From assembly GCF_044324875.1 (NCBI RefSeq), contig NZ_CP172185.1: a stretch of DNA of 64,000 bases, one strand, 5' to 3'. A program made the position numbers and the translations under genes. Under the pieces are notes generated by a model. It had not been told where the DNA came from, made no database searches, and was given only the letters and a program-made list of their open reading frames with translations. How positions within the stretch are numbered: the stretch's first letter is position 1; each line of letters begins with the position of its first letter. Below are positions 12,425 to 59,783 of this stretch, in pieces. The DNA comes from Escherichia coli. Its GTDB lineage: Bacteria > Pseudomonadota > Gammaproteobacteria > Enterobacterales > Enterobacteriaceae.

Positions 12425-13108
12425 ATGAAACTGTTGATTGTCGAAGATGAAAAGAAAACCGGAGAATACTTGACCAAAGGGTTAACCGAAGCCGGTTTTG
12501 TGGTCGATTTGGCCGACAATGGGCTGAATGGCTACCATCTGGCGATGACCGGTGATTATGACCTGATAATCCTCGATATTATGCTGCCGGACGTGAACGG
12601 CTGGGATATCGTGCGCATGTTGCGCTCCGCCAATAAAGGGATGCCGATTCTGTTGCTTACCGCGCTTGGTACCATTGAACATCGCGTCAAGGGGCTGGAG
12701 TTGGGGGCGGATGACTACCTGGTGAAGCCGTTCGCTTTTGCTGAACTGCTGGCGCGGGTGCGCACTCTACTGCGGCGCGGGGCGGCGGTAATTATCGAAA
12801 GTCAGTTTCAGGTTGCCGATTTGATGGTCGATCTCGTCAGCCGCAAAGTCACCCGTAGCGGCACGCGCATCACGTTGACCAGTAAAGAATTTACTTTGCT
12901 GGAGTTTTTCCTCCGCCATCAAGGTGAAGTGCTGCCCCGCTCGCTTATCGCCTCGCAGGTGTGGGACATGAATTTCGACAGCGATACCAACGCCATTGAT
13001 GTGGCGGTGAAGCGGCTGCGCGGCAAAATCGACAACGACTTTGAGCCAAAGCTGATTCAGACCGTGCGCGGCGTGGGTTACATGCTAGAGGTGCCGGATG
13101 GTCAGTAA
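12425..13108 (+). CDS. cusR: Copper-responsive response regulator CusR (OmpR family)
   Basis: 227 aa, receiver domain plus winged-helix domain; divergent from cusC. Confidence 0.95.
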
Positions 13109-55157: not shown

Positions 55158-56279
<1,122 letters not shown>

Positions 56280-56330
56280 CCCACAAAAATGCTTTTCCGT
56301 TCCTCTTTAATAAATTGTGCAACTGGTTAA

Positions 56331-56999
56331 CTACCAGTTGCCATAGGGATATTTTTTATCTTTGATAAACTCAAGTACATATTCATCGTCTCCAAGAGAA
56401 AAATCATGCCGGGAAATTCCTTTACACATTTCCATTTTTTCACCTGAAACCGTTTCTATCAGAATCTGCTTATCCGTCAGGCGAATATTGGGCTTGTCAG
56501 GTTTCTCCAGCCATACGCGTACTTTTCCTTCTGGAGCCAGACCGATTAACAGATACCGCAGATAATACTTTTCACTGCCACCGCCTGGTGGTGAATAAGG
56601 TGTGAGCATCAATTTCCAGACGTCTCCCGCCAGCGTTATCCAGGTTTCATACACTTTTTTATCAATCACTGAATCCCAGCAGAAATGGATAGACATAGGG
56701 GGATTTTTGGCTTTATTGAATGATAACACCCCAACCCGAAGATTATCTCTCCACTGACCAATAGTAGTGGAACTCGGAGCGGTAGCATCCAGCGTTCTGA
56801 ACTGATAATAGATACCATCAGTGTCCAATAGTTCTACATAGGTAACTTGTGCTGGTAGCGCATTAGGGTAGAAAAAAAGGAAATACCATTCATCATAGGG
56901 TGCAAGCAGTGATATTTTTTCTTTCGCTGCTGTCTGGACTGATCCGGCTATCATTAACGCAATGGTTAATCTATAAATTATTTTAGCTGTTATTTTCAT
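56331..56999 (-). CDS. Putative periplasmic immunity protein, paralog 2 (orphan immunity candidate)
   Basis: 222 aa with Sec signal peptide (MKITAKIIYRLTIALMIAGSVQTAAKEK); C-terminal half nearly identical to the upstream paralog; sits 3' of the Tle1-like effector. Confidence 0.65.
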   Translation of the reverse strand: MKITAKIIYRLTIALMIAGSVQTAAKEKISLLAPYDEWYFLFFYPNALPAQVTYVELLDTDGIYYQFRTLDATAPSSTTIGQWRDNLRVGVLSFNKAKNPPMSIHFCWDSVIDKKVYETWITLAGDVWKLMLTPYSPPGGGSEKYYLRYLLIGLAPEGKVRVWLEKPDKPNIRLTDKQILIETVSGEKMEMCKGISRHDFSLGDDEYVLEFIKDKKYPYGNW

Positions 57000-57005
57000 T
57001 GTTAC

Positions 57006-57665
57006 TTACCAGTTACCATAGGGATATTTTTTATCTTTGATAAACTCAAGAACATATTCATCGTCTCCAAGAGAAAAATCATGCCGGGAAATTCCTTTAC
57101 ACATTTCCATTTTTTCACCTGAAACCGTTTCTATCAGAATCTGCTTATCCGTCAGGCGAATATTGGGTTTGTCACGTTTATTAAGCCATACCCGTACTTT
57201 TCCTTCCGGAGCCAGCCCGATTAACAGAAACCGCAGATAATACTTTTCACTGCCACCGCATGGTGGTGAATAAGGTGTGAGCATCAATTTCCAGACGTCT
57301 CCCGCCAGTGTTATCCAGGTTTCATACACTTTTTTATCAATCACTGAATCCCAGCAAAAATGGATAGACATTGGTGGGTTTTTGGCTTTATTAAAAACTG
57401 ACGACATCCCTGATACTTTCTCGCTCCATTGTCCAACACTTCCTGGACTGGCATTGGTACTGGCCAGCGTTCTGAACTGATAATAGATGCCATCGGTATC
57501 TAATAATTCCACATAGGTAACTTGTGCTGGTAGGGAATCAGGGTAGAAAAAATTGAAATACCACTCATCATAGGGTGCAAGCAACAATATTTTTTCTTTC
57601 GCTGCTGCGTTAAAGTTAAGAACCATAGACGTAATAACAAACAGTAATTTTATATTAAATTCCAT
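57006..57665 (-). CDS. Putative periplasmic immunity protein, paralog 1 (likely cognate to the adjacent Tle1-like effector)
   Basis: Start at internal ATG 57665 (MEFNIKLLFVITSMVLNFNAAAKEK, signal peptide); this start overlaps the effector stop as ATGGAATTTAA; about 219 aa. Confidence 0.7.
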   Translation of the reverse strand: MEFNIKLLFVITSMVLNFNAAAKEKILLLAPYDEWYFNFFYPDSLPAQVTYVELLDTDGIYYQFRTLASTNASPGSVGQWSEKVSGMSSVFNKAKNPPMSIHFCWDSVIDKKVYETWITLAGDVWKLMLTPYSPPCGGSEKYYLRFLLIGLAPEGKVRVWLNKRDKPNIRLTDKQILIETVSGEKMEMCKGISRHDFSLGDDEYVLEFIKDKKYPYGNW

Positions 57666-59658
57666 TTTGTTTATTCCCTTGCATATCGTATATAGTTCTG
57701 GTCCAATTTTCATCCGGCCGATTAACAAAACTAAACGTCTTAAACGCTGATACTTCAGCAGACACCTTATTTTTTAATCGATAATCGACGGTATTCCAGT
57801 TGGAAGAACAGTGTAAATATTTCCCAATGGTTTTAAGCTCATCATCAGAAAAAGGCATCGGCGCTGTACACAAGAGAACGGCTTTACCCTGAGAAATTGC
57901 TTTTTCACATATTACCTTTAAATGACTGGGAACTTTTAATTCCTTATCAGCAACAGAAATGGCATCAAATACTACCCCTGCCTCTTTAGCGACTTCATAC
58001 ATTACTCTTAACGCAATCTTTGACCAGTCATTGGTGATCGTTCTGCGAAATGTCACCGCTGCAGCGACCCGTTTTCTCACATTACCTAAGTGGTCAGGCG
58101 ACGCTATTTCATCAATATTGGATTCAATTTTTAGGACACCAGAAGGCAGAATCGGAGCCAGCGTCGAATAGCGCCACAATAACTCTGCCTGCTGTACTGC
58201 TTTTTGGTAAGCGCTTGTCGCTTCCATCGGCACATTTCCCAGTACCGTTTCAATCGCCGGGCGACTTAAAAACAGGTACTCATCTTCCTGTGGGTCATAA
58301 CCGCCACCAATATCAGCATGTGATCCAGGGAAACTTAATTCTGGCCAGCTTTCCTTTATGCTGTTGAGGCAAAAGTTATAGCGACATTCGTTCATTGCTG
58401 TGAGCTGGAATACATGTTTGGCCACACCTGGCGGTAACTTCACTTTTACCGGAAAGTTATTACCATCATGAGGGTCAAAACCATCCATCAGCCCTCCGAT
58501 GGCTGCAACTGTGTCAAAAATACCTAAAAATTGCACTTCCCCGGAAGGTTTACCTAAATATTCAACTGACTGAAATGCCGTCGCAATGGTTTTAATCAGT
58601 ACGGGATCACGTTCAAATACGCGATTAGTAAAGTGCCGTGCGGCTGCCGCCCCACGACTAAAGCCAAATACGTCAAACTGTAGACGCTTAATTACTAGTT
58701 TAGCATCCTTTAAATCAACAATAATCTCTGCCAGTGTCTCACGAAGCAGTGATATCGCACGGTCAGTTTTGGCAATTACCCCAGTATCATTATTTCCTAG
58801 CCCCATTCCTACCAGAGAGTCTGCTTTATTATTTTCAGTGCCAATACCTTCAATATATATTTTTTCCTGAATATTAAATACATCATCATCTAAAACTAAT
58901 TGCCGATGATACAACTCATTCAACCAATGAATATTCGTATAGTAATTCAAATAGCTCTGTACTCCGGATCCCGTTTTACCCTGCTTGCTCATACATTGTT
59001 TATTAAACGAGGCCAAATCCTGGACATCCAGACCATAGGTTTCTGGTTGGCAAAAACTCATACGTAAATTCGTATTGGTTAAATTGTTTCCTGTGCCATC
59101 AAAGAATACGCCAATGGTGAGGATAATTTCTCGTTCAGGCGGTATTTCTGGTTTTTCCTCAACAGGTAAGAGCGTCGGTGGGAAAAGGCGATTATAATTT
59201 TCAGGTGTGAGTAAATAACTAAATTCTGTATTGGCTGTAAGATGCTTACAGTAGATATATTTGTAGTGTATTGTTATATATTGATAGTCGAGTTCATTTT
59301 CTTTTATTATAATCTGATTCTGAGTTAACGTTGCACCGCGGACTTCAATATAATAATAACTTTCCCATTTCCCATATTTATTAATACGATAAAAATCAAA
59401 CTCAAAACGGCATCGTTCGTTATTATTAATGCAATTCATCAGCAGCGGTGAGCTTTTATCGAGAATTTTACAAAATTGTATCGCTTGATGATTAATGCCA
59501 AATCCTGTATTACTCACTCCTCCCTGAAAACTAAAAACAAATATTTCATCTTCATGTCCCTGTTGATACCGATTCCCGACAGAGGCTTGCGTCCCGCATC
59601 CTGCAGAAATATTACCTTGTTGCTCCCCTGTAATGCGTAAATATATAATGTCACCCAT
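57655..59658 (-). CDS. Hcp-domain / DUF2235 (Tle1-like phospholipase) fusion protein, a putative T6SS Hcp-linked effector, 667 aa
   Basis: N-terminal ~155 aa match the Hcp/TssD family (IYLRITGEQQGNISAGCGTQASVGNRYQQGHEDEIFV..., KSSPLL motif). A Pro-rich linker (PPTLLPVEEKPEIPPERE) follows, then DUF2235 hallmarks: FFDGTGNN, nucleophile elbow GFSRGA, FDTVAA and HADIGGGY. Confidence 0.85.
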   Translation of the reverse strand: MGDIIYLRITGEQQGNISAGCGTQASVGNRYQQGHEDEIFVFSFQGGVSNTGFGINHQAIQFCKILDKSSPLLMNCINNNERCRFEFDFYRINKYGKWESYYYIEVRGATLTQNQIIIKENELDYQYITIHYKYIYCKHLTANTEFSYLLTPENYNRLFPPTLLPVEEKPEIPPEREIILTIGVFFDGTGNNLTNTNLRMSFCQPETYGLDVQDLASFNKQCMSKQGKTGSGVQSYLNYYTNIHWLNELYHRQLVLDDDVFNIQEKIYIEGIGTENNKADSLVGMGLGNNDTGVIAKTDRAISLLRETLAEIIVDLKDAKLVIKRLQFDVFGFSRGAAAARHFTNRVFERDPVLIKTIATAFQSVEYLGKPSGEVQFLGIFDTVAAIGGLMDGFDPHDGNNFPVKVKLPPGVAKHVFQLTAMNECRYNFCLNSIKESWPELSFPGSHADIGGGYDPQEDEYLFLSRPAIETVLGNVPMEATSAYQKAVQQAELLWRYSTLAPILPSGVLKIESNIDEIASPDHLGNVRKRVAAAVTFRRTITNDWSKIALRVMYEVAKEAGVVFDAISVADKELKVPSHLKVICEKAISQGKAVLLCTAPMPFSDDELKTIGKYLHCSSNWNTVDYRLKNKVSAEVSAFKTFSFVNRPDENWTRTIYDMQGNKQNGI

Positions 59659-59783
59659 ATGATTACACCCATTCCATAGATTTTAATTATATAATATAAA
59701 CTTAATAAACATCTCATTTGGCAATGTATATTAATTATATGTTTGGGCATAACAATTTTTTAATTACGTGATGCACTAATAAT

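Follow-up and report, generated by a model that had tools for sequence, protein, structure and literature searches.

The Hcp-ET2/ETI2 pair of Escherichia coli is reported to have been described by Ma et al. in 2017 (Virulence 8:1189), with the locus tag A31K_02346 in strain PE321. [quoted passage not shown] A literature search for Hcp-ET together with ST131 retrieved no paper. Members of the DUF2931 family, to which Tli1 belongs, were shown to protect against DUF2235 effectors, tandem pairs included, and in Aeromonas hydrophila both Tli1AH and Tli2AH were reported to be needed together (PMC7245790). Short gene overlaps in E. coli support tight termination-reinitiation, with coupling dropping steeply as the distance between stop and start grows (PMC6728339, PMC10666635), and the commonest overlap classes are -4, -1 and -8 (PMC10666635). 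No report on the reinitiation efficiency of the 11-nt class was found in this coupling literature (PMC6728339, PMC10666635).

Here we analysed a stretch of 64,000 nucleotides of E. coli DNA (RefSeq assembly GCF_044324875.1, contig NZ_CP172185.1), hereafter the window. Our main reading, to which we assign a probability of roughly three in four, is that an acquired island in this window carries a compact operon, made of an hcp-tle1 fusion gene and two DUF2931 immunity genes, that would be expressed from one transcript with termination-reinitiation and would confer periplasmic immunity. The genes, domains and signal peptide on which this reading is built are as follows:

57655..59658, minus strand: effector gene, 667 aa, with an Hcp (TssD) domain, a linker and a Tle1/DUF2235 phospholipase region
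59643..59245, minus strand: Hcp (TssD) domain, residues 6-138 of the effector (Pfam PF05638, 3.4e-13)
59142..57676, minus strand: Tle1/DUF2235 phospholipase region, residues 173-661 (PF09994 and 6SJL_D alignment)
57006..57665, minus strand: immunity gene 1, DUF2931, 219 aa (Pfam PF11153, 4.3e-28), given as the same CDS by PGAP
57665..57600, minus strand: candidate Sec signal peptide of immunity 1, residues 1-22, ending A-A-A before KEK
56331..56999, minus strand: immunity gene 2, tandem DUF2931 paralogue, 222 aa (Pfam PF11153, 4.3e-26)

Hcp and toxin lie in one reading frame, a single 667-aa ORF in which the toxin is C-terminal of Hcp. The N-terminal part also matched the NCBIfam model TIGR03344 (residues 1-149, 2e-36), and Hcp structures were found in the PDB with the effector sequence. 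For the C-terminal part, the PF09994 match (2.3e-14) was above the gathering score and covered only profile positions 169-273, and residues 173-661 aligned end to end with PDB entry 6SJL chain D (E=1.4e-127), which we take to be the Tle1 of enteroaggregative E. coli (EAEC) in complex with VgrG. The effector contains the GxSxG nucleophile motif as well as the conserved Asp and His: GFSRG (S334), FDTV (D382) and PGSHADIGGGY (H447) were invariant in the 13 aligned homologues, whose identities went down to 46%, and the same motifs align in 6SJL_D. By comparison with published Tle1 work, these three residues are presumably the catalytic triad. The full-length Hcp-Tle1 fusion is kept in Salmonella, Kluyvera, Enterobacter, Lelliottia and Cedecea, and none of the T6SS core genes is found within the window. 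Judged from its sequence, the protein is a putative T6SS effector and phospholipase, an Hcp-Tle1 fusion of the Hcp-ET2 type. In this regard, the preliminary description of this DNA had called the upstream gene a T6SS effector and the downstream gene its immunity gene, and both assignments agree with our data, the former by the profile and PDB matches to Hcp and to Tle1 phospholipases and the latter by the PF11153 match to the DUF2931/Tli1 family directly 3' of a Tle1 gene on the same strand.

The N-terminus of both immunity proteins is hydrophobic and leads to an A-x-A-type site ahead of a conserved KEK, the cleavage site having been placed by the -3/-1 rule, and that of immunity 1 aligns with the signal peptides of its paralogue and homologues. 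With these putative Sec-type signal peptides, the two proteins would be expected to reach the periplasm. A lipobox Cys is absent from both signal peptides (57600-57665 and 56925-56999, minus strand). An L-x-x-C lipobox was present in most of the DUF2931 homologues retrieved and missing in those of Pseudocitrobacter (L003), Salmonella arizonae (L006) and L040, the first two being the nearest Hcp-fused relatives. This distribution suggests a soluble periplasmic sub-type rather than outer-membrane lipoproteins, and the missing lipobox is no argument against membership in DUF2931. A PDB sequence search with immunity 1 gave no match.

The two immunity genes share 84% nucleotide identity overall and 96-100% in their 3' halves, which suggests a recent gene conversion or duplication. 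The tandem (56331-57665, minus strand) is mosaic, its diverged blocks being the signal peptide and codons ~70-95. Immunity alleles of E. coli carry one of two C-terminal cassettes, KGISRHDFSLGDDEYVLEF or NGRSAYKHGYSYPESTKNF, in combinations that differ between copies 1 and 2, as seen when an ST131 locus (L002) and that of strain GmM077 (L079) were compared with window positions 56331-57665. The effector has variable patches at residues 252-265 (GmM077) and ~574-610 (cluster P0002), and among three E. coli alleles these showed no simple covariation with the immunity cassettes. In the ST131 RefSeq record (L002, 1632-2255), PGAP begins immunity 2 fifteen codons later than the gene at 56331-56999 of the window, giving 207 aa; this is an annotation inconsistency, as the same upstream ATG and signal peptide exist there.

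The effector and immunity 1 meet at a junction with two elements:

57655..57665, minus strand: stop/start overlap ATGGAATTTAA, encoding the effector tail N-G-I-stop and the immunity signal peptide M-E-F
57675..57680, minus strand: SD-like AAGGGA, 9 nt 5' of the immunity-1 ATG, including the GGG codon of effector Gly661

Both direct reading and a script gave ATGGAATTTAA for minus-strand positions 57665..57655. The 667-aa effector ORF (59658..57655), whose C-terminus is ...YDMQGNKQNGI*, terminates at TAA 57657..57655, and reading from ATG 57665..57663 runs to the end of the immunity ORF at 57006 and yields 219 aa. The shared stretch is thus 11 nt, and the earlier statement that the ATG lies 8 nt ahead of the effector TAA in overlapping genes is borne out. 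The geometry of the sequence, the identity of the domains, the choice of start codon and the conservation of the arrangement are direct observations. A fold of the 131 nt around the junction was not unusual (z=-0.13), and an Rfam scan of 56000-60000 matched no family. Two further ideas about the junction were considered and dropped. Unmasking of a sequestered immunity ribosome binding site by effector translation was given up with the fold at z=-0.13, and a programmed frameshift producing an effector-immunity fusion, considered since the immunity frame has no stop in the 21 codons 5' of the ATG, was ruled out as there is no known slippery or +1 motif and the open stretch is chance-sized and closed in close relatives. 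Within the same window, cusR (ending at 13108) and cusS (starting at 13098) overlap as ATGGTCAGTAA (13098..13108, plus strand), which is the identical ATGnnnnnTAA 11-nt geometry in two ORFs with full-length NCBIfam model matches (227/227 and 480/482), and further adjacent gene pairs share 1 or 4 nt. The 11-nt overlap is real and conserved, yet it reflects the ordinary packing of genes in an operon, in this case an effector-immunity module known from earlier work.

Low GC (0.34-0.45 against 0.53-0.60 in the flanks) marks the three genes as an island (56300-59830). In the RefSeq annotation of near-identical loci, its neighbours are ybbP, on the minus strand at 59827..62241, and mnmH, convergent on the plus strand at 55173..56279. 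In E. coli K-12 this position is occupied by the rhsD element. The ybbP-mnmH site looks like a hot spot of polymorphic-toxin cargo, and the island was probably acquired horizontally. Three candidate transcription signals frame the genes:

59784..59820, minus strand: hairpin AAAGCCGTTTAT...ATAAACGGCTTT with a T-rich tail, just 3' of the ybbP stop (RNA fold -18.9 kcal/mol)
59734..59763, minus strand: sigma-70-like candidate promoter TTAAAA-18-TATAAT with 10/12 matches, in the 168-nt ybbP-effector spacer, by consensus only
56319..56341, minus strand: terminator-like hairpin GCAACTGG-TAGTTAA-CCAGTTGC with a T-rich tail, across the immunity-2 stop (-15.0 kcal/mol)

The first hairpin is likely the terminator of the ybbA-ybbP operon, which would isolate the island transcriptionally from upstream; the consensus terminator scan did not call it because its T-run is interrupted. 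The hairpin on the immunity-2 side sits in the 51-nt gap before mnmH. Promoter-like matches in the region were not above chance, with 5 found against 10.2 expected from shuffled sequence, and the predicted promoter and terminator sites fit a single transcript without being proof of it.

Co-transcription is the natural reading of the junction, because the overlap leaves no room for a terminator and a promoter and the consensus scan predicted neither kind of site there. A single mRNA, probably initiated between ybbP and the effector gene and terminated at the hairpin that spans the immunity-2 stop, would carry all three genes. Ribosomes finishing the effector at UAA 57657..57655 would stand 8 nt past AUG 57665 and could reinitiate there, aided by the AAGGGA site on the Gly661 codon, and free ribosomes may also initiate de novo at the same SD-like site, so that immunity 1 could be translated independently of the effector. 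Immunity 2, whose ATG is 6 nt past the immunity-1 stop and has a weak SD (duplex -2.8 kcal/mol), would probably be coupled likewise across this gap. The putative Sec-type signal peptides would then direct both immunity proteins to the periplasm, the site of action of Tle1-type phospholipases that sister cells deliver. We infer the single transcript, the coupling, the export and the neutralisation of the toxin, with co-transcription plus termination-reinitiation as the best-supported mechanism for the junction.

Tle1-type lipases act in the periplasm, and immunity would therefore be directed mainly against attack by sister cells and not against the cell's own cytoplasmic pool. Furthermore, coupling need not be the sole or an essential route to immunity expression, since T6SS immunity genes in Vibrio cholerae and tli1 in EAEC have additional upstream promoters. 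The interpretation in the preliminary description, that the overlap safeguards the cell by making immunity whenever toxin is made, is accordingly retained in part: the gene identities, the start codon and the compact operon stand, and the safeguard logic needs to be qualified in view of the periplasmic action of Tle1 and of the extra immunity promoters known elsewhere.

The junction was then compared across the Tle1/DUF2931 family. Among 76 loci taken from species-representative genomes, 46 junctions consisted of a Tle1 gene directly followed by a DUF2931 gene; four starts (L012, L017, L045 and L072) were set by hand from candidate lists, that of L012 being ambiguous between a 10- and a 4-nt overlap. 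Overlaps of 1-11 nt were found in 41 of these 46 junctions (89%), the tally including that of the window:

4-nt overlap, ATGA: 23 junctions
10-nt overlap, ATGGAAATAA-type: about 12 junctions
1-nt overlap, TAATG: 4 junctions
8-nt overlap: 1 junction
11-nt overlap, the window: 1 junction
10-nt gap with a strong GGAGG, EAEC-type loci (L038, L041, L042, L052): 4 junctions
30-nt gap: 1 junction

All six other Hcp-fused relatives have ATGA. In the closest of them, represented by the S. arizonae-type sequence, CAAAAATGA aligns where E. coli has CAAAATGGAATTTAA, and this alignment is consistent with an origin of the 11-nt form in which a single base changed in the A-run before the ATG and the effector stop shifted from an ancestral ATGA to the next in-frame TAA. 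The 11-nt form is an E. coli variant of a family-wide tight stop/start juxtaposition. Within E. coli the whole module was present in 569 of 5,426 complete genomes (about a tenth), ST131 records included, and of the 573 complete genomes carrying a 70-nt junction segment, 560 have it with an identity of 99% or more. A diverged allele from strain GmM077 has a different signal peptide and one codon more, yet ATGGAATTTAA is unchanged.

These comparisons bear on the possibility, which we rate as less probable than the main reading, that the overlap is a neutral by-product of compaction, immunity 1 being translated mainly from its own SD-like site with effector translation adding little, and the 11-nt form having come about through the one-base change in the A-run. 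The SD-like site is suitably spaced ahead of immunity 1, and the overlapped bases encode the effector tail past the invariant Gly661 and the first residues of the signal peptide, both unconserved in the alignments, so there would be little constraint against drift of the junction and little selection needed to tolerate the overlap. Across the family, the overlap measures 1, 4, 8, 10 or 11 nt or is replaced by a 10-nt gap, which likewise indicates that no fixed geometry is required, and the difference between CAAAAATGA in the closest Hcp-fused relatives and CAAAATGGAATTTAA in E. coli goes in the same direction. However, the 89% of overlapping junctions in the family, set against ~24% of E. coli unidirectional gene pairs lying between -8 and +6 nt (PMC10666635), suggests a juxtaposition that is maintained, in a comparison whose loci are phylogenetically related rather than independent. 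In addition, published tests on native overlapping pairs found tight coupling also in those that have an SD (PMC6728339).

A promoter in the 3' part of the effector gene could also drive both immunity genes, besides or instead of the operon transcript, in which case the overlap would not act as a safeguard; we consider this tentative and on the whole unlikely. There are precedents for it: in V. cholerae, promoters internal to vasX, tseL and vgrG-3 serve tsiV2, tsiV1 and tsiV3, respectively, independently of the main T6SS promoter (PMC3857813), and in EAEC the basal expression of tli1 from P4532, an internal promoter of the sci1 cluster, shields T6SS-OFF cells (PMC13262931). The AT-rich effector gene would also favour sigma-70 sites, spurious or real. 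Nevertheless, between 57700 and 59650 the consensus scan picked up nothing promoter-like on the minus strand, a result that is weak evidence either way, and the only other minus-strand match (57005..56977, 9/12) lies at the start of immunity 2.

A broader and rather speculative extension, to which we give a low probability, would see in the junction a family-wide dual-coding element. In nearly all loci, the SD-like site of the immunity gene incorporates the codon for the effector's invariant Gly, and under this proposal the ribosome binding site on the Gly codon of an effector M-x-G motif, together with a tail whose length is constrained so as to hold the immunity start 8-11 nt downstream, would set the effector:immunity ratio, the E. 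coli 11-nt form being a frame-shifted derivative. Separately, the same proposal would have an Hcp-fused clade with soluble, non-lipoprotein immunity, in which the mosaic copies in tandem widen the range of effector alleles that are protected against.

Arrays of truncated effector 3' fragments, corresponding to the last ~110 aa, were also seen in some Cedecea and other Enterobacteriaceae loci (L021, 6166-7499; L048, 6151-7091). Downstream of every fragment comes a DUF2931 gene, the same overlapping stop/start junction being kept throughout, and the arrays look like orphan immunity cassettes that were copied along with the effector 3' end.

The position of the overlap depends on the start of immunity 1, for which ATG 57665 is, on the sequence evidence, the best supported of the candidates and the right choice. 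Among the in-frame ATG, GTG and TTG candidates, it is the only one with an SD-like site, the pairing of AAGGGA with the 16S 3' end amounting to -5.3 kcal/mol when all other candidate starts reach -1.7 or weaker. From this ATG the protein begins with MEFNIKLLFVITSMVLNFNAAA followed by KEK, in parallel to MKITAKIIYRLTIALMIAGSVQTAA and KEK in the paralogue, and the signal peptides of homologues from other genera start within a few residues of its alignment position. The immunity frame opens at the ATG itself in Pseudocitrobacter (L003) and 21 nt before it in S. arizonae (L006), and since the frame is closed just 5' in these closest relatives the longer upstream extension of E. coli cannot be ancestral. 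In each of three inspected records, the PGAP annotation agrees on this start and on an overlap of 11 nt. The mechanical ORF call of 240 aa from TTG 57728 is the most upstream possible start and over-extends the gene by 21 codons. The start first proposed for immunity 1 in the preliminary description was this same ATG, and it is upheld by the sole SD-like site, the homologue signal peptides, the closed frames in relatives and PGAP. That immunity 1 begins instead at TTG 57728 or ATG 57713 (74- or 59-nt overlap), as the frame being open back to 57728 would allow, or at ATG 57626 (no overlap), is very improbable, because these starts lack SD-like pairing (-1.4, -1.7 and +1.3 kcal/mol, respectively), the upstream two would place 16-21 additional residues ahead of the hydrophobic core and are not possible in relatives with the closed frame, ATG 57626 would delete most of a signal peptide that the paralogue and all homologues have in full, and PGAP chose ATG 57665 in three records.

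The effector-immunity module is already known and the overlap is a routine feature of it, and our results have little significance beyond correct annotation, that is, the immunity-1 start is fixed and the module is identified as of the Hcp-ET2 type with two Tli1-family genes. As a practical matter, an effector deletion that does not spare the last ~25 nt, which contain the SD-like site and the ATG, would abolish immunity expression. At the level of the family, tight stop/start juxtaposition is the rule for Tle1/DUF2931 pairs.

Compared with the systems described so far, the locus is closest to Hcp-ET2/ETI2, with which it shares, as the reviews describe that pair, the species, an N-terminal Hcp joined to a C-terminal DUF2235/Tle1 and the immunity gene or genes that follow (PMC6730261, PMC6099711); by architecture and species, the window allele is a probable match to Hcp-ET2. 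With Tle1-Tli1 of the EAEC Sci-1 cluster (6SJL/6SKI chain D; "Tle1-EAEC" in RefSeq) it has in common the phospholipase region and an adjacent DUF2931 immunity gene on the same strand. However, the EAEC Tle1 stands alone and is carried by VgrG, whereas Hcp and toxin form a single protein in the window; where the window has the 11-nt overlap, EAEC-type loci show a 10-nt gap and a strong GGAGG; and their immunity protein is an outer-membrane lipoprotein with a lipobox Cys (10.1101/2024.03.05.583533), which both window immunity proteins lack. The window also differs from EAEC Tle1-Tli1 in having two immunity paralogues. As regards coupled overlapping pairs in general (PMC6728339, PMC10666635), the junction follows the usual pattern, in which stop and start overlap on one strand and the upstream gene contains an SD-like site, and its 11 nt belong to a less frequent class than the most common overlaps of 4, 1 and 8 nt. 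Lastly, the A. hydrophila system resembles the window in gene order, with the DUF2235 effector Tle1AH followed by two tandem DUF2931 genes, Tli1AH and Tli2AH, although Tle1AH is a cargo that depends on a DUF4123 adaptor and not an Hcp fusion (PMC7245790). For the window paralogues, which are 84% identical in DNA, redundancy or a broadened specificity seems more likely than the joint need reported for the Aeromonas pair.
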